Shown: positions 12,923 to 57,702 of the stretch, piece by piece
Position numbering within the stretch: position 1 is the first letter of the stretch
How the letters are laid out: each line of letters begins with the position of its first letter
NCBI GenBank assembly: GCA_035221665.1
Contig: CM069131.1
Location: forward strand, 28,396,001 to 28,460,000
Length of the DNA stretch: 64,000 bases
DNA from: Okamejei kenojei
Taxonomy: Eukaryota
Direction of reading: 5' to 3'
Notes under the pieces: model-generated
Told to the model about the DNA's origin: nothing
The model's input: the letters and a program-made list of their open reading frames with translations, nothing else
The model's database searches: none
Position numbers and translations under genes: made by a program

Positions 12923-14536
12923 ATTTTACTTCGGAGTCACGTGAGTGACTACGTGAAGAAGCCCCGCCTGGCGCTTGATCAGCATTACGTCGACGCTGAC
13001 GGTAGAGCAAGAGCTGCAGAGGCAGCTTCTCTACAGCGGTAGGTACGGGCCCGCAGGTAAGTGCAGTTGAAATACTTACAGGGCATATCCAAACTACGTG
13101 GCTGGTGTATAGAGCCACCAGGAGTTAAAAAGAAACGGAATTTAAAAGCAAAAAATAAAATAAAAGTTAAAATGAAAAGAAAATTAATGGAGAAAGACTC
13201 CAAAAATAAAAAAATCAACCAAAGGGTTTAAAAAGGCCCAGAATATTCCCCAAACCAGACCCTGATGGGTTTCCATATATTAATATATATGGTGGAATTT
13301 ATCAATGTGGAAATATCTACCTCGGATTGTTTTGGAGGTAGTCTCCTTGAGGAAAAACTCAGGAGTAACCAGGGCAGTAAAATAATATGAAAAAACTGAC
13401 CCTAAAGGTGCATTGATAGTGGTGGCTGGTCATAAAGTACCCACCACAGCACAAATATATATACAGGTGTACTAGGTACGATACCTGAATGAAGGAGTGA
13501 GGCCATGGAAAGTAACCATGGAAACCAAAATTAATTGGTCTCTCACCAAAGCTGTTATGGTTGAAACAGCAGAGTTATTGGTAAAACTTTTATGTTTTAT
13601 TAAGGTATCAACGGTGAATCCGATTATGGTACCCATGTCTCAATTATATGCGTGGCATCACTACTTATGTAAAACAAATAAAACATTGTGCAATAACCAA
13701 AACATTTTAAATAAAAAAGACAAATTGCCATTAGTTTGNNNNNNNNNNNNNNNNNNNNNNNNNNNNNNNNNNNNNNNNNNNNNNNNNNNNNNNNNNNNNN
13801 NNNNNNNNNNNNNNNNNNNNNNNNNNNNNNNNNNNNNNNNNNNNNNNNNNNNNNNNNNNNNNNNNNNNNNNNNNNNNNNNNNNNNNNNNNNNNNNNNNNN
13901 NNNNNNNNNNNNNNNNNNNNNNNNNNNNCAATTTTGCACTTAAGATTTGCAGGTCAAAACAGATCAAGTTATGTTAAACTCCTGATTATTTATGGAGTAA
14001 ACCTGCCTCAGGATTAATCAAAGACATTGATTACAAAGGAAAGACTATTGGTCATTAAACTTTGACACAATTATGATCCAATGTAAAGATTTGATAATGG
14101 ATCAAACAAAGGCAGGAGTATAATAAATAAATATTTATCCAACACAGCCTTATGTGAACCCATATGATTGGGAAGAGAAGGGGCTTCATGTACATTTGAA
14201 GAGGTGCAAACACTTGTTACAGAAGAAGTTGATGAAATCTCCAATTGTGGGAGATTACAGGTGTGTTATGATCAATGATATGGCATAACAAAGGATTGAT
14301 TTATTTTAATGTGTAAAGGATCTACAAAAAAATTGTAGAAGGAATTGGTTCACCTGTATAGGAAAACCTAAAAAATGATTTTAGGTTTGCACCCAAAATA
14401 TCTCCAATAAAGAAGGGGGTACGTAAATTTGTATAATAAATTTCCCCAGGGAAAAAGAAGATGTGGTGGTAAAGCCATACAAGACATCATTTTAAATACA
14501 CTTTTACAGTGTAAAAACAAATGTACATCTTCCATT

Positions 14537-14725
14537 TTATAGCTATGTTTAAGAGTGAGTTGGATGTGGCCCTTGTGGCTAAGGGGATCAGAGGGTATGG
14601 AGAGAAGGCAGGTACGGGATACTGAGTTGGATGATCAGCCATGATCATATTGAATGGCGGTGCAGGCTCGAAGGGCTGAATGGCCTACTCCTGCACCTAA
14701 TTTCTATGTTTCTATGTTTCTATGT
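14537..14725 (+). mobile_element. Young CR1/HER1-like 3' end inserted in DIRS copy A only
   Basis: Near-identical to 1554-1734 with a (TTTCTATG)3 tail; absent at the homologous site ~23918. Confidence 0.9.
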
Positions 14726-15432
14726 AACATTGAAAAACAATTGTTATTAACAAATTGTTAATCATTACTATAAGACTCGAATGATTGGTATTTAGTACCA
14801 ATTTATTATTATATTTACAGGTGCTTGAAATTAATTAGAATGGGTCAGCTGTGCAAGTTAAGACATTGTCTAATGGATTAAACTCAGTTCTAGGCTGTTC
14901 ACATAATTATTGGAACAACAATTGCACTGATAAGAAGATTAGCACTTGCACTAATGAGGACATGGTCATGGTTCATCTTGATCACATTTTAAATTGGAAG
15001 GTTGATCAGGAGTCAGCTGCAAATTAGTGCAGCAATTACAAGCCTGTTGAGAGGCAAGGTCCCTGACCCATCCAATAAAAACTATGTTTTAGGCATTCAT
15101 AAACATTCCTAAATTACTATTCTGGGTTTAGGAGTAATTCAGCACCATATGAGGGGGAAACATGTTTTCCGAGATACAAATATGTCTCATTGCTTTGTTG
15201 ACAAACTTTCTCCCTCCATCAGAGAAGGAGCTTAGGTAAAAGAGTAAAAAAGCTCCAAAAAAGGGAAAACACAAGCATTATAAGAGTATGCAGGCCATTT
15301 GACAGGCCTATGCAAATACCAAAGGATACGTTATCAGAATTAAAGTGGTGGATAGAAAAGATTCCACAAGCTGCTTTAAACATATTAGCTTAGCAGCCGT
15401 TGCAAGCTGAAGCAAGTATTATCGGATGATGG

Positions 15433-15518
15433 ATAGCTTCTGTGATTATTTGGGTTACGATAAGTAAAATATCTATTCTTATCAAGTTAATATTTGATAC
15501 GTCCCTTGTTTAGGGGAC
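15433..15518 (+). ncRNA. RNU2: U2 snRNA 5'-derived fragment (pseudogenic) embedded in the DIRS RNase H region
   Basis: 15470-15504 TATCTATTCTTATCAAGTTAATATTTGATACGTCC matches U2 TATCTGTTCTTATCAGTTTAATATCTGATACGTCC at 31/35; starts ATAGCTTCT (U2 ATCGCTTCT) and ends with a stem IIb-like GTCCCTT..AGGGGAC. Confidence 0.85.
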
Positions 15519-18500
15519 TACGGACAATAACACCAGGGAATTGCAAATGGATTGTCCTAAGAAATGTTTTCTCCAAACATTTGTATTAATATTGGAGTAT
15601 CAGGAGCTTTTTATGGATTAAATGCCTATTGTTCTACTATGAAAGTGTGCATGTCAAATCAGGTGAACAATACCACAGCTGTGGCATATATCAATCACAT
15701 GAATCAAGTAATATCATTATCAAGTGATTATCTGGGTAACCAGATGTGGCGTATTCTAATAATGTTTTAGTTCAGCTGTTTATCTCTAAGGAAGAGACAA
15801 TGTTGTCGCAGACAACAAATCAGGGGGAAAACATTGTCAGTAATATGGATTACTTGCCATTAATCTGGTTGTATCCAGATTAAATCACCGATTTCTCAAA
15901 TGTTTCTCGTGGGAAAACCGAGAGCAGGAGCGGTGGATGCATTTCGCTAAATTACATGAGGAAAGATGTTCTTTTATATTACTCATTTTGTCTGATAGGG
16001 CAATGTCTGATGAAAATGTAGCAGACGCTGCCAGGGGCACTTTGGTGGCCCAAACCGGACCTTCATGGTTCTCATTAATGTTGAGAGTGATGTTTGAACC
16101 AGTTATGATGACTCGTAGTTGCAGTAATATGTTGTTGTACAAATTCATCCATGGCAGGAAGATATGAATTTGGCTATCTGTAGGTTTGACCAGACCATTA
16201 TAACAGTTTGACGGTCAAAGAGGTCTATGAATGTTTTAACTAATATAAAATATAACAATTATGTACAAAAGGAATGTTATACCTGCAATTTGGAGAAATA
16301 GTTTAAAAAACAATATTTTGTTTATAAGAAATTGGAAGTCTTTCGCAGACAGTAAAAGTTATTTTATCATATTAGATATATGGGAGTTCCTTGTGGATTG
16401 CATTTTTTCTCAGCATCTAAGTGATAGAGCCAATAATAGGGCTCATAGTGTTTATCGTCCTATTTAGGACAAATTGCTGACCAAGAATTTATCGGGCCCA
16501 TTCGTAATATCCCNNNNNNNNNNNNNNNNNNNNNNNNNNNNNNNNNNNNNNNNNNNNNNNNNNNNNNNNNNNNNNNNNNNNNNNNNNNNNNNNNNNNNNN
16601 NNNNNNNNNNNNNNNNNNNNNNNNNNNNNNNNNNNNNNNNNNNNNNNNNNNNNNNNNAGTTGGGAGATCAGCATAGTCCTGACTTGCCTTAGGCAATGGA
16701 CTCCAATTCTATCAATGATTCAAAAATTTAACATTGAAAGTAATAATGTTCATGACTTTAGTATCAGCATAAGAGTGCAAACATTGCAAATGTTACATTA
16801 TATAATTGCATGTGGCTACAGCTTACATTATCTTATATGTTTATGAATTTACCAAACAAGGCAGACCAAGAAGAGCTGGAACCAAGGTAAAATTTAAGCA
16901 TATCCTGTCGGCCATTCTGCAACTCCAGCATTTTGTGTCTATCTTCGACAGAAACAGGCAAATCAGCATACCATGTCCCTGATATCCAGTACTCATCTAT
17001 ATTAATGCCATTTACTAGTACTTTGTCTGTAACCTTCTATGCATTGGCTCATCCAGAAGCTTCTATAATGTTGTGAGAAACTTATCCACACCACCCACCG
17101 TGGTAAAATGTGTTAAACATTTGTAACATCTTCTGTGTGACTAAGGTTTTCCTCAGCTTTGCTCTAACCGCTTATCTCTTACTCACAATTTACTCTATCT
17201 TATCCCCTCCACAAGTCCAAGGTAGTGCAAGAAGTGGTCTTTATTCTGCTGCCGAGGTAGGATTAGAGTTGTTCAGGTCAGTTCAAGAACCTGACGATGT
17301 AAGAGAGTAATATTCCTGAACCTGGTGTTGCGGGACTTCAGGCTTCTGGACCTCCTGCCTGACAGTAGCAGCAATAAGAGGGCATGGCCGAGATGGCCGG
17401 GATCTTTGATGTTAGGCAACACCTCATGCAGATGCGTTCGATGGAAGGGGGGGGGGGGGGGGGTGGGTTTGTACCTGTCATGGACGGCAACTCTTTCATT
17501 CCTTACGATAGAATTGGCATACCAGGCCATGATGCGACCAATCACTATACTTTCTACAGTGTTTCTGTGGAATTGTGTTGGAGTATTTGGTGACGTGCCA
17601 GATCTCTTTAAACTTTGAAAAAAGTAGGGTTGTTGGCACTTCATGATTCCATCTACGTGCTGGGCCCAGGACACGTTATCTGAGATATTAACACCCAGGA
17701 ATTTGTGCAATGTCTTATAACTATCAGGATTCAATTCCATTTGAAATTCAATCTGATATGCTAGCAACAGTTATTCTGCTGCCTTTAATTCTATGACAAT
17801 CCATTGCCCAGCAAATATAACACACCTTGATCTGAAAGATCAAGGCCAAACTTGTATATTCCTTGGATGAGATGTGTCAGTCTTCTAAGCTATTACAAGT
17901 GTTATTTTTAACAGACCTTTTATACTATTAATAGGAACATATAGCGCTGATGGAAAGTTGAGGACGAATGTGCCTCAGGCAGCTTGGCGACAGAACTTAT
18001 AAAGTAAAACAGTTGGCTTGGTCTTTCCTTAAAATTCATTCATACCATTTAAAGTTTTGTTTCCAGTAACTTTTCATTCAATGAATTGCAGATCACAACC
18101 AGTTCATCTTTTAAAAAAATGTTTCCTCATGCTTCACATTCTTTTCCCAGTGATCTGATCATGTATGATTTTGACTCATGGAAGCACAAGGAGGTCTTAA
18201 AGCCTCTTCATCCTTCCCCATTATTCAATGAGCATCCTGCACTCCAAGGAACAAAGTCCCAACCTCCTTACAGCTCAGGCCCCTCAGTCCCAGCAACATC
18301 CTCACTCATCTTCTCTGTACTCTCCATCCAGCCCAATGACATCCCTGTGACCAAGACTGAACACAGCACTCCAAATGTGGCCCCACAACGTCCTGTACAA
18401 CTAAATACCCTGAACGCCAAGGGCCAATGTAGAACAAGCCCCCTCCATCATCCTACCCACCTATGACACAACCTCCAGGGAACCATGCACCAGCACCCCT

Positions 18501-21023
18501 ACATCCCTTACTCCATCACGGCCCCAGGGCCCACATACACCATGAAGGTCCCATCTCAACCCGACCTCCCAAAATCCCAAAACACCCCTCAGCCATCTGC
18601 ACCAAACTCCATCAGCTATTCCTCAGCCCACTTACCTAGCTGACCAAGATCCCACTGCAATCGTTGACAACCATCTTCACTGTTCACAATACCACCTATA
18701 TTAGTATCATCTGCAAACTGCACGCTAAAACTGTCAATAGTTTATCAAACATATTTTCTTTTGCAATAAATTAGCTGCTGAAGGAACTCCCAGCATCTGT
18801 GGGATGGAGGGGAGTAGTGATCGATGATTCTAACCAGTAGCGTCTAGGACCAGGGGTCATAGCCTCAGAATAAAATGACGTTTCTTTAGGAAGTAGATAA
18901 GGAGGAATTTCTTTTGTCAGAGGGTGGTGAATCTGTGAAATTCATTGCCACAGAAGGCTGTGGAGGCCAGGTCAATGGATATGTTTAAGGCAGAGATAGA
19001 CAGATTCTTGATTAATATGTATGACAGGGGTTATGGGGGCAAGGCAGGAGAATGGGGTTGAGGGGGAGAGATAGGTCAATTCTCATTAACCTCCTCTGGA
19101 CCCTCTCCAACACCAGCACATCCTTCTTCAGATATGCGGCACAAAACTGTTCACAATAATCCAAAGGCAGTCTGACCAGTGCTTTATAAAGCCTCAGCAT
19201 TGCATCCCTGTTTTTGTATTCTAATCCTCTTGAAATAAATGCTAACATTGCATTTGCCTTTCTTACTACTGATTCTCCAATTTCTCAATATAACTAATGT
19301 ATAAATACAAGGATACCATCTATCCTTGTGCACTATTCCAAACTTGCCCTGCCAGAGACTTTGTGTGATCCCTCCTTCAGCCCTGCCTCCTACTGTAATG
19401 TCACTACTTCAGTTACAGTATGTTGCCCCTCTTCATATTTCAGTCCATGAGATTTCACTCTCCATGTGTCTGCTCACTTCACCAGCCTGTCTCTGATTCT
19501 TGTCCCTCCCACAGTTTACACTATTATATGTTTCCGTGTAGTCTGACAAACCAACCCTTCACCCAACTCTGTGCCTTGTCATCGCGTTAAATATACATAC
19601 AAACTGATTGTCCGTGTCACAAGAGACACAATGTTGTTAATGATGCAGTGATAGTGCACTGAAAAGGCGCTTGTCCTATCGTATCTCTGTCGGCTCTGTG
19701 AACGTCCATCTATACATCAATCGTACAACCCTCAGCAACTCTTTTTGTTAAATTATCCAAGATCTCAATCAAGCAAAGGCCAGCATTTATTTCCACCTCT
19801 AACTACCCTTGATCCACTGTTTGATGGAGATATTCCCAAGATAGTGGAGGGTCGGGGGTTCTAATATTTAGACCCCGTGATGATGAATAAAGATTGAGTA
19901 ATGTGGGATGCAATATAATTCAGCTGCAGCTTCTGAAGGCCCACAAAGACTTCCCCAAGACCCTCCTCAGTTCAGTTTTGTTTATTGTCACATGTACTGA
20001 GGTACAGTGAAAAGCTTTTGTTGTGTGCTATCCAGTCAGCAGGAAGACGAAACATGATTGCAAATGAGCCATTTAAAGTGTCTAGGTACATGATAAGGGA
20101 ATAATGTTTATTGCAAGGTGAAGCTGATCAAGGATAGTCCAAGGATCACCAATGAGGTAGATAGTAGTTCAGCACTGCTCTCTGGTTGTGGTAGGATGAT
20201 TCAATTGCCTGATAACAGCTGGGAAGAAACAGTCCCTGAATCTGGAGGTGTGCGTTTCACACTTCTATACCTTTTGCCTGATCGAAGAGGGAGTGGCCAG
20301 GGTGCAACTCATCCTTGATTATGCTGCTGGCCTTGCCAAGGCAGCGTGAGGTAGAAATGGAGTCAATAGAGGGAAGGATGGATTGTGTGATGGTGTGAGC
20401 TGGGCTCTGTCCACAATTGGCTGCAATTTCTTGCGGTCTTGAATGGAGCTGTTCCCAAACCAAGCTGTGATCCATCTGATAAAATGCTTTCTTGTCATCA
20501 CAATTCCCTTTAAGTATTACTGAATGTTTTTAAAATGTGAGAATTCTGCTCAATATAATGTCCCTGCCCTCATTCACCAATAATAGAGTACAGATTGTGG
20601 TGGTGACCCCATGAGTAAGCACTCAAACGGTTTTTGATTTCACAACACAATTAGAACGTTGCACATCATTTCACAACCTGTGTTCATGGCCCATCCCTTC
20701 TCATGAGTTTATCTCCATCTTTAATATGTTTATTTGATTTCCATTGTCAAATCTTGCATCACAGCAGACTGTACATTGAATATTATTGTCCTCTCAGGAA
20801 TTTGCAGTTTTTCAGTAATTATCAGCACTCGGCTCCTTAGTTCACTCAACGCTACTATCTGGAAAAAACCCAAAAAATATTTGTGTGTTGACCTATATTA
20901 TTCCACATAATTAAGTGGAGAGAGTGCATGAAATTAGCTGTAATCCCGGCCCCATTTACTTTGCATACAGTAGGCTGGTTGGTTACTCCTGGATCCACAC
21001 AGTTTGCTTCACTGGAGCAATAT

Positions 21024-22258
21024 CTTTTTTTATATAATATATATATTAGAAGTAAATACAGATTATGATGAAAACATTTCATGTGTATCAATCATACATT
21101 ATTAATATTATCAATTGAAGATTCATTCTGCTTCTAATTTTAAAAATATATATATGTAGAAACTAAGAAAGAGAGAGAGAAAAAAAAACATAAATGTCAA
21201 GCTAAAAAAAGAAAGAATGGAATGATTTACTAATAATACATCATTGGAGATAGGTTCGAAGATTATGAAGAATAACTTTTCATCTGATCCGGAGTTCAAG
21301 TTTCAGTTAGGTTCCTGTGCCGAACCAATCTACCCCTTCAAATAATCGATGAATGAAGACCATATTTTAACAAAAAGTTCTTGTTTGTCCATTAAGACAA
21401 ATCTGATTCTTTCCAGGTGTAGGGTCTCTGACATTTCCATAATCTACATTTTAATTGTGGGGGTTATAGGACCTTTCCAAAATTTTAATATTTATTTCTT
21501 CCCAGTTATTATACTGTAGTCTAGAAAGTTTCTTTGACTTGTTGTGAGTGTTAGACTTTGTTCTCATATTCCAAGTATTATTAGTTTTGAGTCGGGATCC
21601 AGTTTAGTGTTAACAACTTCAGAAATTATTCTAAAAATATCAAACCAGAAATTTTTGATTTTTATACAATTTGCAAAATTATGTGTTAAGTTAGCCTCTA
21701 GATGCTGACATTTATCGCAGATAGGGGAGATATGTGGGAAAATTCTATTTAATTTTACTTTAGAGTAATGTAATCTGTGTAATACTTTAAATTGTATTAA
21801 AGCATGTCTGGCATTTAACGAGCATTGATGTGTATGTTGTAGACTTTTGTCCCAAATATCTTTCGTTATAGGTTGACCTAATTCACTTTTCCCATGTATG
21901 TCTATATGATTCTGTTGATGGGACCTCGCTATCTAAAAGGGTATTATAAATATAAGTTGTTAATTTTTCTGTATTGGGATGTTTATTCAAATATTCATCA
22001 AGGATTTCTGGTTCCCTACTCCTATAATCTTGTGTATTGGATTTAACATAATCTCTAAGTTGTAGATATCTAAAAAAATTATTTGAGTCCAGAATTAGTC
22101 CATAAATCTGTTGTAACTCCTGAAATAGAAGAAAAGTGCCTTTCTTATAAAGATGTCCCATCTTTTTAATTCCGTTATTTTTCCATTGTGTGAAACCTTT
22201 ATGGAAGGTTTGAATAAGGGACTCTTTACAATGGGGAGACAGTGTGATATATTATCCA
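21024..22258 (-). mobile_element. L1 3' fragment, duplicate of 11687-12922
   Basis: Near-identical sequence and the same DIRS junction. Confidence 0.9.
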
Positions 22259-25200
22259 ATTTTACTTCGGAGTCACGTGAGTGACTACGTGAAGAAGCCC
22301 CGCCTGGCGCTTGATCGGCATTACGTCGACGCTGACGGTAGAGCAAGAGCTGCAGAGGCAGCTCCTCTACAGCGGTAGGTATGGGCCCGCAGGTAAGTGC
22401 AGTTGAAATACTTACAGGGCATATCCAAACTACGTGGCTGGTGTATAGAGCCACCAGGAGTTAAAAAGAAACGGAATTTAAAAGCAAAAAATAAAATAAA
22501 AGTTAAAATGAAAAGAAAATTAATGGAGAAAGACTCCAAAAATAAAAAAATCAACCAAAGGGTTTAAAAAGGCCCAGAATATTCCCCAAAACAGACCCTG
22601 AGGGGTTTCCATATATTAATATATATGGTGGAATTTATCAATGTGGAAATATCTACCTCGGATTGTTTTGGTGGTAGTCTCCTTGAGGAAAAACTCAGGA
22701 GTAACCAGGGCAGTAAAATAATATGAAAAAACTGACCCTAAAGGTGCATTGATAGTGGTGGCTGGTCATAAAGTACCCACCACAGCACAAATATATATAC
22801 AGGTGTACTAGGTACGATACCTGAATGAAGGAGTGAGGCCATGGAAAGTAACCATGGAAACCAAAATTAATTGGTCTCTCACCAAAGCTGTTATGGTTGA
22901 AACAGCAGAGTTATTGGTAAAACTTTTATGTTTTTATTAAGGTATCAACGGTGAATCCGATTATGGTACCCATGTCTCAATTATATGCGTGGCATCACTA
23001 CTTATGTAAAACAAATATAAACATTGTGCAATAACCAAAACATTTTAAATAAAAAAGACAAATTGCCATTAGTTTGNNNNNNNNNNNNNNNNNNNNNNNN
23101 NNNNNNNNNNNNNNNNNNNNNNNNNNNNNNNNNNNNNNNNNNNNNNNNNNNNNNNNNNNNNNNNNNNNNNNNNNNNNNNNNNNNNNNNNNNNNNNNNNNN
23201 NNNNNNNNNNNNNNNNNNNNNNNNNNNNNNNNNNNNNNNNNNNNNNNNNNNNNNNNNNNNNNNNNNNNNNNNNNNNNNNNNNNNNNNNNNNNNNNNNNNN
23301 NNNNNNNCAATTTTGCACTTAAGATTTGCAGGTCAAAACAGATCAAGTTATGTTAAACTCCTGATTATTTATGGAGTAAACCTGCCTCAGGATTAATCAA
23401 AGACATTGATTACAAAGGAAAGACTATTGGTCATTAAACTTTGACACAATTATGATCCAATGTAAAGATTTGATAATGGATCAAACAAAGGCAGCAGTAT
23501 GATAAATAAATATTTATCCAACACAGCCTTATGTGAACCCATATGATTGGGAAGAGAAGGGGCTTCATGTACATTTGAAGAGGTGCAAAAACTTGTTACA
23601 GAAGAAGTTGATGAAATCTCCAATTGTGGGAGATTACAGGTGTGTTATGATCAATGATATGGCATAACAAAGGATTGATTTATTTTAATGTGTAAAGGAT
23701 CTACAAAAAAATTGTAGAAGGAATTGGTTCACCTGTATAGGAAAACCTAAAAAATGATTTTAGGTTTGCACCCAAAATATCTCCAATAAAGAAGGGGTAC
23801 GTAAATTTGTATAATAAATTTCCCCAGGGAAAAAGAAGATGTGGTGGTAAAGCCATACAAGACATCATTTTAAATACACTTTTACAGTGTAAAAACATTT
23901 TATTAAAATGGACATCTTCAACATTGAAAAACAATTGTTATTAACAAATTGTTAATCATTACTATAAGACTCGAATGATTGGTATTTAGTACCAATTTAT
24001 TATTATATTTACAGGTGCTTGAAATTAATTAGAATGGGTCAGCTGTGCAAGTTAAGACATTGTCTAATGGATTAAACTCAGTTCTAGGCTGTTCACATAA
24101 TTATTGGAACAACAATTGCACTGATAAGAAGATTAGCACTTGCACTAATGAGGACATGGTCATGGTTCATCTTGATCACATTTTAAATTGGAAGGTTGAT
24201 CAGGAGTCAGCTGCAAATTAGTGCAGCAATTACAAGCCTGTTGAGAGGCAAGGTCCCTGACCCATCCAATAAAAACTATGTTTTAGGCATTCATAAACAT
24301 TCCTAAATTACTATTCTGGGTTTAGGAGTAATTCAGCACCATATGAGGGGGAAAACATGTTTTCCGAGATACAAATATGTCTCATTGCTTTGTTGACAAA
24401 CTTTCTCCCTCCATCAGAGAAGGAGCTTAGGTAAAAGAGTAAAAAAGCTCCAAAAAAGGGAAAACACAAGCATTATAAGAGTATGCAGGCCATTTGACAG
24501 GCCTATGCAAATACCAAAGGATACGTTATCAGAATTAAAGTGGTGGATAGAAAAGATTCCACAAGCTGCTTTAAACATATTAGCTTAGCAGCCGTTGCAA
24601 GCTGAAGCAAGTATTATCGGATGATGGATAGCTTCTGTGATTATTTGGGTTACGATAAGTAAAATATCTATTCTTATCAAGTTAATATTTGATACGTCCC
24701 TTGTTTAGGGGACTACGGACAATAACACCAGGGAATTGCAAATGGATTGTCCTAAGAAATGTTTTCTCCAAACATTTGTATTAATATTGGAGTATCAGGA
24801 GCTTTTTATGGATTAAATGCCTATTGTTCTACTATGAAAGTGTGCATGTCAAATCAGGTGAACAATACCACAGCTGTGGCATATATCAATCACATGAATC
24901 AAGTAATATCATTATCAAGTGATTATCTGGGTAACCAGATGTGGCGTATTCTAATAATGTTTTAGTTCAGCTGTTTATCTCTAAGGAAGAGACAATGTTG
25001 TCGCAGACAACAAATCAGGGGGAAAACATTGTCAGTAATATGGATTACTTACCATTAATCTGGTTGTATCCAGATTAAATCACTGATTTCTCAAATGTTT
25101 CTCGTGGGAAAACCGAGAGCAGGAGCGGTGGATGCATTTCGCTAAATTACATGAGGAAAGATGTTCTTTTATATTACTCATTTTGTCTGATAGGGCAATG

Positions 25201-26018
25201 TCTGATGAAAATGTAGCAGACGCTGCCAGGGGCACTTTGGTGGCCCAAACCGGACCTTCATGGTTCTCATTAATGTTGAGAGTGATGTTTGAACCAGTTA
25301 TGATGACTCGTAGTTGCAGTAATATGTTGTTGTACAAATTCATCCATGGCAGGAAGATATGAATTTGGCTATCTGTAGGTTTGACCAGACCATTATAACA
25401 GTTTGACGGTCAAAGAGGTCTATGAATGTTTTAACTAATATAAAATATAACAATTATGTACAAAAGGAATGTTATACCTGCAATTTGGAGAAATAGTTTA
25501 AAAAACAATATTTTGTTTATAAGAAATTGGAAGTCTTTCGCAGACAGTAAAAGTTATTTTATCATATTAGATATATGGGAGTTCCTTGTGGATTGCATTT
25601 TTTCTCAGCATCTAAGTGATAGAGCCAATAATAGGGCTCATAGTGTTTATCGTCCTATTTAGGACAAATTGCTGACCAAGAATTTATCGGGCCCATTCGT
25701 AATATCCCGATATGAAAAAAGGATATTTATATATAAAATGTCCAAAGTTGAAATACAGAAGTTGGGAGATCAGCATAGTCCTGACTTGCCTTAGGCAATG
25801 GACTCCAATTCTATCAATGATTCAAAAATGTAACATTGAAAGTAATAATGTTCATGACTTTAGTATCAGCATAAGAGTGCAAACATTGCAAATGTTACAT
25901 TATATAATTGCATGTGGCTACAGATTACATTATCTTATATGTTTATGAATTTACCAAACAAGGCAGACCAAGAAGAGCTGGAACCAAGGTAAAATTTAAG
26001 CATATCCTGTCGGCCATT
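22259..26018 (+). mobile_element. DIRS1-type retrotransposon, duplicate of 12923-16916
   Basis: Same left end and domain relics; YR P..KY..WE...VL..L..W.P at ~25740-25810. Confidence 0.88.
24628..24713 (+). ncRNA. RNU2: U2 snRNA 5'-derived fragment in DIRS copy B
   Basis: Identical to 15433-15518. Confidence 0.85.
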
Positions 26019-29013
26019 CTGCAACTCCAGCATTTTGTGTCTATCTTCGACAGAAACAGGCAAATCAGCATACCATGTCCCTGATATCCAGTACTCATCT
26101 ATATTAATGCCATTTACTAGTACTTTGTCTGTAACCTTCTATGCATTGGCTCATCCAGAAGCTTCTATAATGTTGTTTGAGAAACTTATCCACACCCACC
26201 CACCGTGGTAAAATGTGTTAAACATTTGTAACATCTTCTGTGTGACTAATCTTTGGTTTTCCTCAGCTTTGGACGGCTCTAACCGCTTATCTCTTACTTC
26301 ACAATCTCTTTTACTCTATCTTATCCCCTCCACAAGTCCCAAGGTCTTATAACTATAGATTCAATTCCATTTGCAAGAAGTGGTCTTTATTCTGCTTGCC
26401 GAGGTATTTTAACAGACCTTTTATACTATTAATAGGAACATATAGCGCTGATGGAAAGTTGAGGACGAATGTGCCTCAGGCAGCTTGGCGACAGAACTTA
26501 TAAAGTAAAAACAGTTGGCTTGGTCTTTCCTTAAAATTCATTCATACCATTTAAAGTTTTGTTTCCAGTAACTTTTCATTCAATGGAATTGCAGATCACA
26601 ACCAGTTCATCTTTTAAAAAAATGTTTCCTCATGCTTCACATTCTTTTCCCAGTGATCTGATCATGTATGATTTTGACTCATGGAAGCACAAGGAGGTCT
26701 TAAAGCCTCTTCATCCTTCCCCATTATTCAATGAGCATCCTGCACTCCAAGGAACAAAGTCCCAACCTCCTTACAGCTCAGGCCCCTCAGTCCCAGCAAC
26801 ATCCTCACTCATCTTCTCTGTACTCTCCATCCAGCCCAATGACATCCCTGTGACCAAGACTGAACACAGCACTCCAAATGTGGCCCCACAACGTCCTGTA
26901 CAACTAAATACCCTGAACGCCAAGGGCCAATGTAGAACAAGCCCCCTCCATCATCCTACCCACCTATGACACAACCTCCAGGGAACCATGCACCAGCACC
27001 CCTACATCCCTTACTCCATCACGGCCCCAGGGCCCACATACACCATGAAGGTCCCATCTCAACCCGACCTCCCAAAATCTCAAAACACCCCTCAGCCATC
27101 TGCACCAAACTCCATCAGCTATTCCTCAGCCCACTTACCTAGCTGACCAAGATTCCCACTGCAATCGTTGACAAACCATCTTCACTGTTCACAATACCAC
27201 CTATATTAGTATCATCTGCAAACTGCACGCTAAAACTGTCAATAGTTTATCAAACATATTTTCTTTTGCAATAAATTAGCTGCTGAAGGAACTCCCAGCA
27301 TCTGTGGGATGGAGGGGAGTAGTGATCGATGATTCTAACCAGTAGCGTCTAGGACCAGGGGTCATAGCCTCAGAATAAAATGACGTTTCTTTAGGAAGTA
27401 GATAAGGAGGAATTTCTTTTGTCAGAGGGTGGTGAATCTGTGAAATTCATTGCCACAGAAGGCTGTGGAGGCCAGGTCAATGGATATGTTTAAGGCAGAG
27501 ATAGACAGATTCTTGATTAATATGTATGACAGGGGTTATGGGGGCAAGGCAGGGAGAATGGGGTTGAGGGGGAGGAGATAGGTCAATTCTCATTAACCTC
27601 CTCTGGACCCTCTCCAACACCAGCACATCCTTCTTCAGATATGCGGCACAAAAACAGTTCACAATAATCCAAAGGCAGTCTGACCAGTGCTTTATAATGC
27701 CTCAGCATTGCATCCCTGTTTTTGTATTCTAATCCTCTCGAAATAAATGCTAACATTGCATTTGCCTTTCTTACAACTGATTCTCCAATTTCTCAATATA
27801 ACTAATGTATAAATCCAAGGATTACCATCTATCCTTGTGCACTATTCCAAACTTGCCCTGCCAGAGACTTTGTGTGATCCCTCCTTCAGCCCTGCCTCCT
27901 ACTGTAATGTCACTACTTCAGTTACAGTATGTTGCCCCTCTTCACATTTCGGTCCATGAGATTTCACTCTCCATGTGTCTGCTCACTTCACCAGCCTGTC
28001 TCTGATTCTTGTCCCTCCCACAGTTTACACTATTATATGTTTCCGTGTTGTAGTCTGACAAAACCAACCCTTCACCCAACTCTGTGCCTTGTCATCGCGT
28101 TAAATATACATACAAACTGATTGGCCGTGTGACAAGAGACACAATGCTGTTAATGATGCAGTGATAGTGCACTGAAAAGGCGCTTGTCCTATCATATCTC
28201 TGTCAGCTCTGTGAACGTCCATCTCTACATCCATCGTACAACCCTCAGCAACTCTTTTTGTTAAATTATCCAAGATCTCAATCAAGCAAAGGCCAGCATT
28301 TATTTCCACCTCTAACTACCCTGATCCACTGTTTGATGGAGATATTCCCAAGATAGTGGAGGGTCGGGGGTTCTAATATTTAGACCCCGTGATGATGAAT
28401 AAAGATTGAGTAATGTGGGATGCAATATAATTCAGCTGCAGCTTCTGAAGGCCCACAAAGACTTCCCCAAGACCCTCCTCAGTTCAGTTTTGTTTATTGT
28501 CACATGTACTGAGGTACAGTGAAAAGCTTTTGTTGTGTGCTATCCAGTCAGCAGGAAGACGAAACATGATTGCAAATGAGCCATTTAAAGTGTCTAGGTA
28601 CATGATAAGGGAATAATGTTTATTGCAAGGTGAAGCTGATCAAGGATAGTCCAAAGGTCACCAATGAGGTAGATAGTAGTTCAGCACTGCTCTCTGGTTG
28701 TGATAGGATGATTCAATTGCCTGATAACAGCTGGGAAGAAACAGTCCCTGAATCTGGAGGTGTGCGTTTCACACTTCCATACCTTTTGCCTGATCGAAGA
28801 GGGGAGAAGAGGGAGTGGCCAGGGTGCAACTCGTCCTTGATTATGCTGCTGGCCTTGCCAAGGCAGCATGAGGTAGAAATGGAGTCAATAGAGGGAAGGA
28901 TGGATTGTGTGATGGTCTGAGCTGGGCTCTGTCCACAATTTGCTGCAATTTCTTGCGGTCTTGGATGGAGCTGTTCCCAAACCAAGCTGTGATCCATCTG
29001 ATAGAATGTTTTC
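26013..29013 (+). repeat. Tandem unit copy C (partial, ends at an L1 insertion)
   Basis: Colinear with 16911-20490 apart from a scrambled/deleted stretch at ~26170-26410. Confidence 0.88.
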
Positions 29014-32000
29014 TTTTTTTTTTCTTTTTTTGTTTATTTTATCTTTATTTATTAGCGGTACTGTCAGTTACATCCGTGTACATCCCTTGTATTGTATTAC
29101 AGTCATTGTACCCCAATTTTAATTTTTTTTATTTTAAGGCTTTAGAAAAGAGAGAATAGAGCGAAAAATAGCAGCATAGAATGTAGAAAAGTGAAAAAGA
29201 GATGTGAAAGTGCAAAAGCGTGACAGAGGGAAAGGAACGGGAATTAAAAGATAGACCCTGGAGTGGAAAAAAAGAAAAAAGAAAAAGGGAAAAATAGAGA
29301 AAGAAAAACGAAAAGCCAGTTACTTTATTACTAACATCTCGCCAAAGGAATCTACCAACTCGGCAGTTTTTCTTCCCCCTTTACCAAGACCCGTCACCGG
29401 TACTTTTTTGAGGTATTCTTGCACCTTATCCTTGTAATAGATTTATAAATGCAGACCACGTCTTATAAAAACAGTCTGATTTTCCTGCTAGTCGGAGTCT
29501 CATATCTTCCAAGTGTAGTGTTTCGAACATAGTTGAGATCCACATATTGACTGTTGGTACCGGAGAATTTTTCCAGAAATTTAAGATTAGCTTTTTTCCA
29601 GTTAATATGCCATATTCAAGTAGAGTCTTTGAAACACGTTTAATTCGGGGCAATCTTCCGATATCCTGAAGATTATCCAGTCTGCTTCCGGGGTCAGTTT
29701 TATTTTAAATATTTTTGTGAAAATTTCAAAAATTTCAGTCCAAAATGTTTGAATTTTTGTACAAAAGACAAATGAGTGTGCTATATTAGCTTCTTGACAT
29801 TGACATTTATCATATATAGGCGAGACGTTGGGAAAAAGTTTACTTAGTTTAGTTTTTGAATAGTATAATCTGTGTAGGATTTTAAATTGTATTAAGGTGT
29901 GTCTTACATTAATTGAACATTTATGCACGTTTAATAAATATTCTTCCCACCTTTCTTTGGGAATTTTTATACTTAATTATTTTTCCCAGTCTCTCCTGAT
30001 ACCATCTGTTGTTGGTATTTCTGCATTTAGAATAATATTATATATATATGATATTAGGTTTGCTGATTCTGCCTTTGTATTCATTACTTCTTCCATTAAC
30101 TCTGGAGGCATATTGTGATAATCTTGTACGTATTTTTCAGATAGTCACAGATTTGGAAATATTTAAAATACTATTTGTTTCCCAAATTGTATTTTAGTTG
30201 TATTTGTTTAAATGATAATAGTTTTCCTAATTCATACACAACTCCGAAGATTTTTATTCCAGCTCTTTCCCATTGTACAAATGCTTTATCTATAGTTGAA
30301 GGTTTAAATGAGGGGTTTTTACCGATAGGAGATAAGAGAGAGAAATTTCTTAATTTTAGATTGTGTTTTATTTGTTTCCAAATTCTGATTGTACTGTATA
30401 TAATTGGATTATTGTTGTAATTTATATTATTCATCGATATTGGAGAGAGAAGGATTGCTCCAATATTATAAGGAGAGCAATCCTCTCTCTCCATAATCGT
30501 CCAATCCGATTGTTGGGGAGAGTTATCCAGCAATTGGATCATGTTTCTGATATTTACAGACCAGTAGTAATACATAAGGTTGGGGAGTGCTAATCCCCCT
30601 ACTACTTTGGGTTTTTTCAGATGAACTCTTTGTATTCTGTGGGATTTATAATCCCAAATAAAATTTGTGATACCTGAGTCCAGTTTTTAAAAAACCTTTT
30701 GGGTAAATATATTGGGATAGATTGGAACAGGTATAAAAATTGTGGTAGAAAAATCATTTTTATGCCATTTATTCGGCCTATTAAGGTCATCGGAAGCATT
30801 TTCCAAAATTTAATCAAGTTACATAGTTTCTTAAGTAGAGGGTTATAATTTTCATCAAACATATCTTGATATCTTCTAGTAATTTCGATGCAAGTATTTA
30901 ATTTTTTCCTTAGCTATTTTGAAAGAAAACTGTAAAAGATGCGTAGAGTCTTTCGGTTTTATTGACATGATTTCATTTTTATTCCAATTTATTATATATC
31001 CTGAAAATGATCCGAAGTCTATTAATTTTAAAATATTTGGTATAGTAATATGAGGTTTTGTGATGTACAATAGTACGTCATCAGCGTATAGTGATATTTT
31101 ATTATTGGAATATTTTGTTTTATATCCATGGATATTCGGATGAGTTCTTAATTTTTCCGCTAGGGGTTCAATTGTGAGGGCAAATAACAACGGTGATAAT
31201 GAACATCCTTGTCTGTTTCCCCTTGACAAATGAAATTTCGTAGATAAATTATTGTTCGTTAATATTCTGCCCGTTGGCTTATTATATAGTAATTTAATCC
31301 ATAGAATAAAATACTCTCCCGGTTGAAATTCTTGCAATACCCTGAGCATATAATCCCATTCGACCTGATCGAATGCTTTCTCTGCATCCAACGATATGAT
31401 TGATAGTTTTTGATCTTCAGTTTGGTGTGAATGCATTATATTGAACAGACTTCTCAAATTATTAAATGATTGTCTCTTAGGGATAAACCCCATTTGATCC
31501 GGATGTATTAATTTACTAGCATATTTACTTAGTCTTCTAGCTAGTATTTTCGCTAATATTTTTTGATCTGTATTTAGCAATGCAATAGCTCTGTGTGATC
31601 CAGGTTCTTTCACATTTTTATCTTTCTTAGGTATTAGTGTGATCGTGGATTCTGCTAATGTTTCAGGTAGCATTTGTGCTTTGAAGGCAACAGTATACAT
31701 TTTCTGTAGGCAGGGGGTAAATATGTCATAAAAACTTTTATAGAATTCGTTACTAAATCTGTCGGGACCTGGTGTTTTTCCATTTTTTAATGAGATTATT
31801 GTTTCTTCTATTTCCTTATTTGAGATTTGTGCTCCCAATTCCTCTTGTTCCTGCAACTCTAATTCAGGAAGGTTACAATTATCCAAGAATTCTGTAACTT
31901 TGGTGGTGTTCATTATCGTTTTAGATGTATACAGATTCTCGTAAAATTGTTCAAATCTTTTATTAATATCACTCGGCAAGGTCAATGTTTCCCCTTTGTC

Positions 32001-32645
32001 TGATTTAATCTATAAAATTGTGTGATCCTTTTCTCGTTTTTTTAACTGACGTGCCAAACGTTTATGGGGCTTATCCCCAAATTCAAAGTGTTCCTGACTT
32101 GTAATTTGTAATAATCTTATGATTTTCTCTGATAATAATTTATTTAATTTGAATTTCAGTATTATTATTCTATTATTTTCATCCGTAGTGGGGTCTAGTT
32201 GTCTTTGTTCATTCTTATTTTTCTTATTTTGAAAAGCTTGATATGAAATTATCATGCCTCGAATAAATGCTTTAAAAGATTCCCATAATAATGTAGGTGA
32301 TATGTCTGTCGTGTCGTTTATTTAGAAGAAAAGGTGAATTTGCTCTTTTAAATATGTACTCCCTTGCGGGTCTTTTAAAGTTTGTGGGTTGTACCTCCAA
32401 AACGGTTTGTTCTTAGTCATTTCTTCCATTTTTATACAAAAAAATATTGGGGAGTGATCTGAGATCGTATTTGTGTGGTATTTTTGTTTAGAAGTGTGGG
32501 GTATTAGTTTTGTATCCACCAAAAAATAATCTATTTGTGAATATGTCTTGTGTACCATAGAATAGAACGAGTAATCCCTGCCGGTCGGATTTGCAATCCT
32601 CCAGACATCTGTTATGTTTGTGATTTTTATGTATGTGTTTAGAAG
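29014..32645 (-). mobile_element. L1 LINE (third subfamily), 5'-truncated within the endonuclease, multiple frameshifts
   Basis: SQIDY/SDHSP, KTPGPD, LDAEKAFD, RQGCSLSPLLF, YADD, IQFKILHRLYY; T-rich tail at 29014. Confidence 0.95.
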
Positions 32646-50100: not shown

Positions 50101-50303
50101 AAGGTAGACAAAAGGGCCGGAGAAACTCAGCGGGTGCGGCAGCATCTATGGAGCGAAAGAAATAGGCAACGTTTTGGGCCGAAACCCTTCTTCCGAAACG
50201 TTGCCTATTTCCTTCGCTCCATAGACGCTGCAGCACCCGCTGAGTTTCTCCAGCACTTTTGTCTACCTTCGATTTTCCAGCATCTGCAGTTCCTTCTTAA
50301 ACA
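50101..50303. repeat. Palindromic dimer of the Penelope terminal repeat
   Basis: Arms ~50101-50173 and ~50196-50270 are near reverse complements. Confidence 0.85.
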
Positions 50304-52413: not shown

Positions 52414-54844
52414 TAACTGTTAAACTCTTTAGTGTCCTTATTAATACGTGTTTTTTTTTACTTGTTTGTTTTTTCAGCCCCTATTACTGTCACCATGCTT
52501 TACATCTCACTTCATCTGTGGGTCTCCACTGCTTCCTGCACTGTTTAGAGCCAAAACCGGATTTTTTTATGAAGAAAAATCATTGCAAGCTATCCAGTTG
52601 TGGTTGGATGAATGTCTGATTTTACTTCGGAGTCACGTGAGTGACTACGTGAAGAACCCGCCTGGCGCTGGCAAACGGCATTACGTCGACGCTGACGGCA
52701 GAAGCAGGAGCTGCACAGACAGCTCCTCGACAGCGGTAGGTTCGGACCGGCAGGTAAGTGCAGTGAAAAAATATTAGGACTGGGAAAAAACTCCGTGCCT
52801 GGTGGAAACCAGGGTTTTAAAGGTTTAAATAACAAAATAAAGTTTAAACTGAATTGAAATACTCTGTTTAAACAACGGAGTTTGAATAGAACGTCCCGGG
52901 GAAAGAATACCCAGTGATCAGGACGAGAGATTAATTACGGGGCCGGTTCCGATACTGGTACCGTTTAAAATACCATAGAGAGGTTAAAATGCTCCACAAT
53001 TTTGGCAGGATATTTTAAAAGTCAGAAAGACTGTATTTTAAAAAAGTTAATAAAATTTTGAATATACAAAAGACTAGGGTCACAGTACCCAAACAGTTCC
53101 CCAAAAAAGACCCTGAGGGGCTTGAATATACAAAATATGGCTATGTGCCAAATTGAGAAATAAAAACTCTGACCCTGGATAGGGTGGAGGAAGTCTCTTT
53201 GGATATAATTCCAAGTGGATCGGGGCTGCAAAAGACAGACCCTGCAAGTGGTGATGTGAATTATGAATGCACACCACAAATAAAATAAAAATAAAAGTGA
53301 GGCCAGGTGTGCCTGAGATAGCAAAAGATTTTGCTATATCTAAAGGAAGTGGTGAGGCTATGGAAAAAACCTAGCTGCCTACATTAATTATATGGTACCT
53401 CACCAACTTCAAGAATACGATAAAACTTTTATGTTTTATTTAAATATCAATGGTTAATCCATTTATAAATATCCATGTCTCAAATAATATGAGATATAAG
53501 AAATACAATTTCAAAGTTTCAAAATGGTGCAAATAAGTGATACTTTCAATATAAAATAAATTGCCATTAGTTGTGGAGCTTAATAGGAAGAAATATATAT
53601 AATTTACCGAATCTGCATCATAGGGTTGCAGATTAATACAAATCAGGATATATTAAACTCCTGATTATTATAGAATACCTGCCTTATGATAAATCAAAGA
53701 CATTAATTACAAAAGAACAGACTACTGATCTTTAAACTTTGGGAAGGAAAACTATGATCCAATAAAAAATGTTGATTATGGATCAAAACAAAGACAAAGA
53801 TCTTTTATCTTATGGTGAAAAAACTATGATCCAATGAAAGATTTGATAATGGATCAAAATAAAGGCAGAAGTGGTATTATCCAAACATAGCCTTATCTTA
53901 ACCTATATAATTGGGGAAAAGAAGGCTTGATGTACGTTGAAGAGGTGCAAACATCTGGTTACAAAATAAGTCATGAAATCTCCAATTATGGGGGATTACA
54001 GGTGTATTATGATTGTTAAAACTTAATATAACTAAGGAAGGATTGGTTCACCTGTATAAGGAAAAAACTGATTTCAGGTTTGCACTCAAAAGTAAATTTT
54101 AAAAAAGAAGGGGAACGTACATGTATATTATAAAATTACCTTAGTGTAAAGATTCATGGTATAAACCATACAATAATATCATTATTTACACTTTCACAGT
54201 GTAAGAAAATAGAAACATCTAGAACATGGAAAGCTGTTGTGATTAACAAAGTGTTAATCAATATTACAGGTGCTTGAAATTAATTAAAGTGGGTCAAGCT
54301 GTGCAAGTTAAAACTTGTCCAAACAATCAATCAGTTCAAGTCTGTTAAAACTGAACACTGAAGGAACAATATACTGATAAAAGATCAGCACTTGCACTAA
54401 TGAGGTCATAGTATGGGTTATCTCGATTACATTTAAATTAGAAGAGATAAGAGCAGCTGCAAATTAGTGCCTGCCATTACAAACCTGGTGGAAGGTAGGA
54501 CCTGACCCATTACATAAAGCATATGCTTAGGCATTAATAAAATATTTTTAAATTACTATTCTGAATTCAGAAGTAATTTAAGCACCATAAGAGTGGGGAA
54601 AATTGTTCCATGATACAAATATGTATTATTGTTGTTGACATACTTTGTTCCTCCATTAGGTTAGGGAAAATATAAATAAAGTTCCAAAAGAAGGAATACA
54701 GAAGCTTATAAGAATATGTATGCCTTGTGAAGAGGCTTATGCAAAATATCAAATGATACGTTATCATTATTAGTAATGTAAAAAAAGGTTCATAAGCTGC
54801 TTCAACTATAAAATTACAACTGAAGCAAGGGTTACAGATCATGT

Positions 54845-54924
54845 ACAGCTTCTGTGAATGTTTGGGTAAAGATAAGAATATTATCTATTCTTATAACAAT
54901 AATTGATATGTCTTTTGTTCGGAC
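54845..54924 (+). ncRNA. RNU2: More decayed U2-derived fragment at the same RNase H position
   Basis: ACAGCTTCT..TTTGGGTAAAGATAAG..TATCTATTCTTAT..TTGATATGTC..GGAC, homologous to 15433-15518. Confidence 0.65.
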
Positions 54925-56192
54925 TGCAGACAATTATACCAGGCGAACATAAATGGTTTGTCCTAAGAAATTTTCCAAACATTCGTATTAATTGTTGAAG
55001 TATAAGGAGTTATGGATTAAAAAGATCGATTGTTTTATTATGGAACTGTCCATGTCGTATCAAGATGAAACAATACCACGGCTGTGACATATGTTAACTA
55101 TGGTCAAATTTGGGAGGAAAATATATTGTCATTATTTTGCATACTTACGATTAATCTGGTTGTATACAGATTAAATCACTGATTTTTAAATATTTCTTGT
55201 GGGTCACAAGATAAGTCAAATAACAATTATGGGATTATCTAAGTAAAACAGATGTGGCATGTTTTAAAGTTTAGTCCCACCTGTTTATCTCTAAGGAAGA
55301 GACAATGGTATCGGAAGATAACAAATTTGGGAAGAAAAACATATTGTCATTAATATGGATTATTTACGATTAATCTGATTGCATACAGATTAAATCACCG
55401 ATCTTTCGAATATTCTTGTGGGTAATCTAAGAACAGTGAAGGTGGATGCTTTTCTCCCAATTACATGAGGAAAAGATTTCTTTGTGTTCCTCATTTTTGT
55501 TTAATAGGGCAGTGTCTGATGAATATGTAGCGGGACACTGCCAGAGGCATTTTGGTGGCCTAATATGGGTCCTTTATGGTTTCATTTATATTGTGTGATT
55601 TTGAACTGCTAGTGATGATTCATAGTGGCAGCAATTTATTGAAGTCAAAAAAGGGGTCTCGACCTAGGTCGTTGCCTGTCTCCCTTTGCTCTTTGGATGC
55701 TGCTGCACCCACTGGGATCTCCAGGTTGAGAAACCCTGCAGTAATTTATTGTTGTACAAAAAACCTCCATAAGTGAAAATATGAATTTGACTATCTACAG
55801 GTTGACCAGACCATCTCAACAGCTGATGGTCAAAGAAGTCTATGAATGTAAACCAATATTACAATATATCAATAAAATAATTATGTATAAAGAAGTGTTA
55901 TACCTGCAATTTGCGGAAATAAGTCTAAATAACTATATTTTGTTATAAGAAATTGGAGGTCTGTATATACAGTAAGTTATTTTGTCATTTAGATATATGT
56001 GAATTCCTTGTGGATTGCATTTTCTAAGTATCTAATTGATAGAGCCAATAATAGGGCTCAGAGTGTTACCGTCTTATAAACGGACAATATATTAACCAAG
56101 AAGTTATCAGATGCATTCATAATATCCCATTATGGAAAGGGATATATATGTAAATGTTAATAAATATATATATATATGTGTGTGTGTGTATA

Positions 56193-56223
<31 letters not shown>

Positions 56224-57122
56224 AGATATGTGTATATGTATATATAATCTGTCCAAAATTGTAAAAAATATAAAGGCAGGAGATAAAAATCTTGAAATGC
56301 CTTAAGAAATGGACTTTAACTCTATCTATGATTCAAAAAACTTAAACATTGAAAATAATAATTCTGATAACTTTAGTATCAATATAAGAGTGCAAACATT
56401 GCAAATGTTACGTTATAATGGCATGTGGATACAAATTGCATTATCATATATGTTTATGAATCTACCAAACAAAGCACACCAAGAAGACCTGAAAACGAAA
56501 CCAAGGTAAACCTATAAGCATATCCTGCTGGCTTTAAGTTGTGTGTGTGTGTGTGTGTGTGTGTGTGAACATTGATGAAAATGTTGCAGTAGGTAAGAGT
56601 CTGTGGCAATGAGACTGCTTATTACACACAAAAACCACAGTGGGTTCAGTAAAACTGATGGTTATAGAGGAATGTATTTCTAGATGGTTAAAAAATTGGA
56701 TACATTCAGTAGGAACTAGACACTGAAAGGTGGAAAATCACTCTGTTAATGAGGAAAATACATTCACAAGAATGGCACAGGATGAGCCACTCAAGCAAAG
56801 ATGCAAGGCCGCAGGAGGCTGTAGATTACTGTTAAAATAAAGGAACCAGTCATGGTGTCAGATTTAGACACGCAATGTTCGGTTCGCTATAATTGTTGCT
56901 TTGTCATGCCATAAAAAATATATATATCTATTGGTATTTGTGATAAATTTGCTTTTCAATGGAAAGGGCATTATTTTCATTTTTTATAATGTGAAAATTA
57001 TTTATCACATAACTTGAGGCAATGTTTGGGGGAAAATGTGTTATTCGCTCGTTATTGTTTAATGAGCCGTTCTGTCGTATGGAATAAATTCTACGACACG
57101 AAAAACACAGAAAGCTTTAAAC

Positions 57123-57236
57123 TCTTCACGTAGTCACTCACGTGACTCCGAAGTAAAATAGTAAGATTAAACGAGAACTTACCAGTTCGAAGTTTGATCG
57201 TTTATTTTATGAGGAGTTACGATGAGGGATTACGTG
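57123..57236. repeat. DIRS internal complementary region (ICR)
   Basis: TCTTCACGTAGTCACTCACGTGACTCCGAAGTAAAA is the reverse complement of the left end, fused to TAGTAAGATTAAACGAGAACTT..., the reverse complement of the right end. Confidence 0.92.
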
Positions 57237-57702
57237 CCCTCCACTCCCCACCCTCATAAAATAAATGATCATCTGGTAGTTCTAAGTCTATTATGAGCCT
57301 TACTATGTTACTTCGGCTATTTTGTGTTCTGTGTTTTTCATGCCGCTGCTTTGAAGTATGCCGTTTGCCAGCGCCAGGCGGGTTCTTCATGTAATCCCTC
57401 ATCGTAACTCCTCATAAAATAACGATCAAACTTCATAAAAGTTCTCGTTTAATCTTACTAATTTATTTCAGTTGCGTTCTTGATTTTTTAAACTCCCCAA
57501 TCAAAGGCAGTAGATCCAGCATCTGGTTTCTGTCTGAAGCTACGTCTTAACATGGAACCGAAAATAATATGAAGCTAATTAAAGGAACAAATTCAAAAAA
57601 CAGGCGAAATACTTTGGTCTTTCATTTTGTTTGAGCACTCTGATCAGACTAAGTGGAGAGCCACAAGACAAAAGGAAGATCATAGAAGGTGAAGCTCCAG
57701 TT

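Follow-up and report, generated by a model that had tools for sequence, protein, structure and literature searches.

Based on junction comparisons across the genome of Okamejei kenojei, DIRS retrotransposons appear to have captured U2 snRNA sequence on 6 to 8 independent occasions, one of which is represented by three copies in the window (the whole stretch of DNA analysed, 64,000 nt, at positions 28,396,001 to 28,460,000 of contig CM069131.1). The best explanation, with fair confidence, is that reverse transcription of DIRS jumped to a truncated U2 as template and that the captured piece then hitch-hiked neutrally. Pick-up of snRNA by retroelement reverse transcriptases (RTs) is already known for LINEs, SINEU and Tx1 heads (PMC4476161, PMC4494074). 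What would be new here, as judged from the sequences, is the internal, duplication-free and repeated capture of U2 by DIRS; among titles and abstract openings of the literature, with subscription journals and Repbase reports outside this set, no DIRS-snRNA capture was found.

The U2-derived segments and their host elements

The features of the window are as follows, where E denotes an insert-free DIRS relative, ITR an inverted terminal repeat and ICR an internal complementary region.

54845..54924, plus strand: U2-derived insert in DIRS copy C, U2 nt 1 to about 84 (stem I, branch-point-pairing sequence, stem IIa; eroded)
52619..57469, plus strand: DIRS copy C, a full-length and non-coding member of a young subfamily; its longest frame without a stop has 70 codons
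52619..52681, plus strand: left terminus of copy C, the inverse complement of 57358-57420 (ITR) and of the ICR
57123..57236, plus strand: ICR of copy C, with matches to the left terminus and to the right end at 57388-57469
54921..55097, plus strand: RNase H remnant of copy C, resuming straight after the insert and matching E 2609-2798
56289..56825, plus strand: tyrosine-recombinase (YR) remnant of copy C, seen as weak pieces in tblastn (E 1e-4 to 7e-4)
15433..15516, plus strand: U2 insert of copy A, from the older subfamily, with pairing retained in stems IIa and IIb
24628..24711, plus strand: U2 insert in copy B, the segmental duplicate of A, same insert as in copy A
12923..16908, plus strand: DIRS copy A as far as alignable to E, lacking its right part and containing N stretches and insertions of other repeats
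22259..26010, plus strand: DIRS copy B as far as alignable to E

The insert of copy C is collinear base for base with that of copy A, and the DIRS flanking sequence on both sides is common to the two copies. Against the genome's own U2 gene (L034, from the cluster on contig C37), the copy C insert scores 68, and 300 shuffles of the comparison gave 40.6 ± 5.7 with a maximum of 64. Because the score is near this maximum, the insert is a weak match by itself, and its assignment to U2 depends on the alignment with copy A. In Rfam at E ≤ 1, the copy C insert is absent from the matches, and the inserts of copies A and B are assigned to U2 with 37 bits (E 7e-4), short of the gathering score, 46. None of the three represents a full-length U2 with Sm site and 3′ stems scoring at least 46, and the branch-point-pairing sequence and stem I are mutated in both the A and C inserts.

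The extent of the insert, U2 nt 1 to about 83-84, was judged against E and three closer copies that are empty-site relatives of the A/C insertion. The insertion point lies directly after the D-A-S-x-x-G-W codons of the host element, a region that we take from its motifs, without a Pfam match, to be RNase H. A chance likeness of RNase H sequence to U2 was ruled out, since the segment is missing from the insert-free relatives. The insert sits inside the element, bordered on either side by continuous DIRS sequence, rather than forming a 5′ head accompanied by a poly(A) 3′ end, so SINEU or another U2-headed non-LTR element is out. A Keno- or Utopia-type insertion into a U2 gene is also out, because DIRS sequence is contiguous around the piece and U2 gene flank is absent.

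The host elements are DIRS1-like retrotransposons. ITRs combined with an ICR are the defining DIRS1-like layout (PMC3266345), and in copy C the ITRs (52619-52681 versus 57420-57358) agree at 87.5%, with ICR segments 57123-57170 and 57150-57236 pairing with the left and right ends, respectively. ITR/ICR ends are also borne by relative E (L215; 4,985 nt), in which RT (PF00078, E 5.7e-23) and YR (PF00589, E 7.5e-8) were recognised and which also has an ORF at E2946-3320. RT-RNase H remnants were detected in copies A and B by tblastn (E 1e-11 and 7e-17) and in copy C by blastn (E 1e-10), and YR remnants are present in all three. With no stop-free frame above the length listed, copy C lacks the open gag, pol and YR frames of an autonomous DIRS; its top 40 matches, copy C itself among them, are 97-100% identical. 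The elements are thus like the DIRS1-like elements of PMC3266345 and PMC7192593 in their ends and, in the intact relative, in RT-RNase H and YR, whereas the window copies are non-coding and contain an internal U2 fragment. They keep only domain remnants and are likely mobilised in trans (compare PMC7192593). The available portions of these two papers on DIRS do not describe snRNA capture.

Several further observations concern the window and its DIRS elements. Copies A and B, whose flanks are common to both, lie in a tandem segmental duplication of ~9.2-9.35 kb (9139-29015; 98-99.8% identical), which may be a haplotype or assembly artefact. A near-perfect hairpin at 50105-50264 consists of two inverted copies of a short repeat, and its Rfam miRNA matches, all under gathering scores, look like artefacts. 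LINE copies occupy the minus strand at 4910-8437 (RT and endonuclease by Pfam) and 29496-32641 (RT by Pfam). A 26-nt DIRS terminal motif has 35,085 exact matches genome-wide and is common to many families only 65-80% alike internally; from this number, DIRS elements with this terminus are estimated at ~3% of the genome. Within DIRS family E, one sub-lineage continued to amplify after it had gained, at E3006-3028, a SINE-like insertion of 87-96 nt with a duplication of 22 nt (L216, L324, L332, L336, L344, L349, L352, L358).

Inheritance of the A/J/C insert

A preliminary description of this DNA had stated that copy C has flanks different from those of A and B and yet carries the U2 segment at the same position, and both statements hold: the 1-kb flanks of A and C give no BLAST match to each other, and copy C agrees with A/B both in the junction and in derived changes. 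These changes, absent from U2, are common to all A-family and C-family inserts. Flank homology, the sign of segmental duplication named beforehand as fatal to this view, was looked for in the same BLAST comparison and none was found, so A and C are not one insertion copied in that way. The capture was further said to be heritable and older than both insertions, and the insert is indeed present in 29/29 A-family and 30/30 C-family top matches, the queries themselves having contained it. Many U2 pseudo-hits had been predicted genome-wide; a degenerate 19-nt motif gave 2,145 exact matches and its control 0.

A tree of the first 30 of these 2,145 matches and the window copies, rooted on E, takes the form of a ladder that runs from A via an intermediate type J to C, with window copy C near the tip. 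A and C are thus stages of one ladder, A the older and C the younger, and not two sister lineages. The within-family distance of the young C subfamily is 1.5%. Stem IIa is lost in C and retained in A, as had been described. One detail did not hold, namely that the stretch TTTGGGTAAAGAT of copy C is closer to U2: window C and window A both match at 10/13. Since TTTGGGCTAAGAT, matching U2 at 12/13, is read by 19/27 scorable A-family loci, it is the A family that is closer to U2. The shared junction and derived changes indicate that the A/J/C insert is a single capture, inherited by one non-autonomous, ladder-like lineage of over two thousand copies.

Sequences from other organisms contain related pieces. 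In organism B, one contig spans 15290-15540 with 7 differences and C-type pieces also occur; in organism C, one contig spans 15342-15516 at a depth of 2.7; organisms D and E, with small shares, gave no bridging contig. C-type contigs are present in one run guessed to be RNA, the source of which may be DNA.

Repeated captures and their junctions

Further captures were located from 48 Rfam U2 matches and exact-pattern searches of the genome. Capture D (U2 1-87 followed by TA) is found in 19 of the first 30 of 406 matches and its exact empty site at 342 places; capture G (U2 1-86 followed by AAA) is found in 28 of the 30 loci fetched of 40 and its exact empty site at 23 places. Capture E1 consists of U2 1-95 and an A-run with a 1-nt duplication in two sister copies, one of them with a 25-nt A-rich tail. 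Capture E2 is a blunt insertion of U2 1-91 and one A, and capture E3 comprises U2 from nt 11/15 to 97 followed by AAA, with a 4-nt GGCC microhomology and a 16-nt deletion. In capture H, U2 1-185 links the left terminus to E1536 in the RT region, and in capture F, U2 1-96 lies upstream of a DIRS-type right end, with a body not recognisably DIRS. With A/J/C included, these would be eight events, or six if F is dropped and E2 and E3 are merged. E2 and E3 are separated by 10 nt, and a single insertion with a duplication of 7 nt could have given rise to both; they do not group in the tree, but this is star-like.

All eight captures are sense to the element (two-sided p 0.008; for 7/7, p 0.016), most begin at U2 nt 1, and 1-3 extra A's often follow. 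Seven of the eight have their end point at nt 83-97, in the interval from stem IIb to the Sm site. An exact U2 5′ 25-mer occurs at 67 loci outside C37, namely 16 DIRS captures, 42 loci of a U2-headed LINE family and 9 solo copies. With the LINE loci left out of the comparison, 0/9 solo copies outside DIRS end at nt 83-97 (Fisher p 4e-4; boundary chosen post hoc); they end at nt 37-62 or are full length, and three have clear duplications. One further solo copy covers 1-135. All of the examined U2 copies with an end at nt 83-97 lie in DIRS or in a DIRS-ended element. A target-site duplication (TSD) is lacking at G, D and E2, amounts to 1 nt at E1 and is not visible at the A/C site, where a short duplication may have been erased because the junction is old.

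The frequency of U2 was estimated in two sets. In family E, it is present in 4/40 copies (3/39 without the query), and among unselected DIRS copies in 5/24, taken from 25 consecutive terminal-motif pairs on contig C1 (four by coordinate overlap, one among 20 fetched). The check for other captured RNAs covered U1, U4, U5 and U6 plus one Rfam scan; U2-like sequence is easier to detect than captured RNAs of an unfamiliar kind. Two of the 30 U6 loci lie within DIRS, one sense and one antisense, both with an A-tail and a 15-16-nt duplication. In searches that favour well-conserved copies, no locus in DIRS was found for U4 (0/15), for U5 (0/6) or for U1, the last either by Rfam (0/30) or among 30 fetched of 64 pattern matches, the two U1 sets overlapping. 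The Rfam scan of 15 unselected DIRS copies found U2 alone.

These junctions bear on a LINE origin, in which target-primed retroposition by L1 or Tx1 would have placed 3′-truncated U2 into genomic DIRS copies, some of which later became masters. LINEs, including a Tx1/Keno-like family with U2 and U1 heads, occur in the genome, U6 retrocopies do insert into DIRS, extra A's stand at most 3′ junctions of the U2 captures, with a long A-rich tail in one copy, and 98% of human U2 pseudogenes are 3′-truncated (PMC4476161). A common origin of E2 and E3 would likewise speak for this route. However, TSDs accompany 88% of human truncated U2 copies according to the same source and both U6-in-DIRS cases, and they are absent at G, D and E2 and limited to 1 nt at E1. 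Random orientation would also be predicted, whereas the captures are all sense, and the association of all examined copies ending at nt 83-97 with DIRS is hard to reconcile with the ~3% share of DIRS in the genome. The LINE route is already disfavoured by these data and is regarded as unlikely.

Proposed mechanism and fate of the captured U2

From the junctions, a likely mechanism was proposed, as sense orientation, a start at nt 1, short A's and an intact target would all be expected from a double template jump. During minus-strand cDNA synthesis, the RT may depart from the DIRS RNA, probably at a break, and start from the 3′ end of a U2 that is truncated and often oligo-adenylated. Having reached the capped nt 1 of U2, it would return to the DIRS RNA at or close to the point of departure. 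Since U2 1-87 has stops in each of the three frames, any copy with a capture inside an ORF would become non-autonomous; with termini and ICR intact, such a copy would be mobilised in trans. Truncated U2 without the Sm site has been reported from cytoplasmic P-bodies (PMC7968993, PMC7293007) and could be the template. The RT of DIRS-1 acts in trans (PMC7192593), and murine leukaemia virus (MLV) packages cytoplasmic pre-U2 (PMC4378196). Two observations fit less easily: the 25-nt A-rich tail of one E1 copy resembles LINE products and speaks against template jumping, and U2 in 5/24 unselected DIRS copies is high for a pure accident.

In place of two RT jumps, U2 might have been ligated to cleaved DIRS RNA or patched into a break of single-stranded antisense cDNA. 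Sense orientation and zero duplication would likewise be predicted, and RNA ligation is known from U6/L1 chimeras. The cDNA made by DIRS-1 is single-stranded, which is compatible with patching (PMC7192593). On the other hand, the capped 5′ end of U2 should be unligatable, so the 5′ junction would still require a jump. The added A's suggest a 3′-OH tail, and the E3 microhomology fits strand transfer, both of which argue against ligation or patching and make this origin improbable.

A more specific form of the template-jumping mechanism may be entertained only tentatively and is itself rather doubtful. DIRS particles would recruit Sm-less truncated U2, partly through pairing of its branch-point-recognition region, and the RT would insert it by precise end-to-end double jumps. 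Capture would then be a recurrent birth route of non-autonomous families, and the inserts would preserve intermediates of U2 decay as fossils. Next to both the D and the G site stands CTACAC, the complement of U2 31-36, a motif present a single time in the 4,985 nt of E, and duplex energies at both sites exceed those of 98-100% of shuffles (10-15-nt windows; post hoc). The lack of U1, U4 and U5 captures in the searches above is a further hint. At the E1 and F sites, no U2 pairing signal was found.

After capture by template jumping, the U2 insert was likely carried as neutral cargo, to judge from its rate of change. The distance between A and C is 0.189 over 79 insert sites versus 0.223 over 387 flank sites (Fisher p 0.55), in line with the earlier argument against strict structural selection. 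Flanks differ from E by 26% (A) and 35% (C), and inserts differ from U2 1-83 at 19% (A family) and 32% (C family) of sites. Insert and flanks thus erode at about the same rate. In the young C copies L418 and L420, its 3′ part is deleted. In subfamily A, stems IIa and IIb are retained with a G52A/C61T double change, and all 11 pairs are kept in only 2.5-5% of simulated neutral inserts, a pattern noticed post hoc; in J and C, these stems decay.

Alternatively, RT jumping may have been followed by selection, with the U2 5′ part aiding the export, packaging or reverse transcription of the non-coding RNA in trans. Such a role could account for U2 in at least three amplified families (A/J/C, D and G; possibly F) and in 5/24 unselected copies, for the stems retained in A (p about 0.03-0.05) and for the slightly lower variability of the D insert than of its flanks (0.030 versus 0.043). 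However, in the youngest, still-amplifying C subfamily the branch-pairing sequence is lost along with stems I and IIa, and a deletion has removed the insert 3′ part from some copies. In addition, the G insert is not less variable than its flanks (0.071 versus 0.066), and the insert-free relatives of D are likewise abundant (342 exact matches). Selection on the U2 piece therefore seems unlikely, and neutral hitch-hiking is preferred.

Among known systems, the snRNA/LINE chimeras described in PMC4476161 are similar in that the RT moves over to an snRNA, which it copies as far as the 5′ end, and the 3′-truncated snRNA pseudogenes of the same paper share the truncation of U2. In those chimeras, the snRNA, mostly U6 or U6atac, forms the 5′ end and is flanked by TSDs, whereas in the DIRS captures U2 is internal, a switch back is needed and a TSD is absent. 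SINEU and the Tx1/Keno elements with U1/U2 heads (PMC4494074) likewise show recurrent addition of the U2 5′ part to an element that then amplifies, but they are non-LTR elements with an snRNA 5′ head and a poly(A) tail; in the U2-headed LINE family of this genome, the heads end at U2 nt 47-54 and not at 83-97. Retroviral snRNA packaging offers a parallel in that unassembled U2 in the cytoplasm could enter a Gag/RT particle (PMC4378196). MLV packages a 3′-extended pre-U2 in that account, in contrast to the 3′-truncated form captured by DIRS, which is not a virus. snRNA copies associated with LTR elements have also been reported (Giles 2004, as cited in PMC4476161).

DIRS reverse transcription is poorly understood, and the capture junctions are natural footprints of it, suggesting which RNA accompanies DIRS and that the RT can leave and re-enter its template exactly. 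They also connect a mobile element with a cytoplasmic product of snRNA quality control in a way that can be tested. For dating non-autonomous lineages, the nearly invariant U2 gene serves as a built-in outgroup, and thousands of U2-like matches in this genome are transposon cargo that will inflate snRNA annotation.

The searches for snRNA copies also revealed LINE-related arrangements. The Tx1/Keno-like LINE family, so labelled by resemblance (L114, L099, L189 and others; 42/67 loci), has U2 1-47/54 at its 5′ end, often with an added U1 head, followed by an ORF1-like frame; L189 sits behind the promoter flank of a genuine U2 gene. Gene remainders of U2 (from nt 35-43), U4 (33-37) and U1 (32-41) all follow one and the same poly(A)-signal/A-tail end at L097, L098, L240, L243, L244 and L249-L251; L282 and L283; and L463, L470, L476, L480, L484, L486-L489 and L491. 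This arrangement suggests that related LINEs target U1, U2 and U4 genes at similar positions. A U4 4-80 fragment occurs in a multicopy AT-rich repeat on small contigs (L272-L276, L278, L280, L285) that is not DIRS by the comparison library, and at L317 a U6 retrocopy is followed by an A-run and then by a U1 copy.
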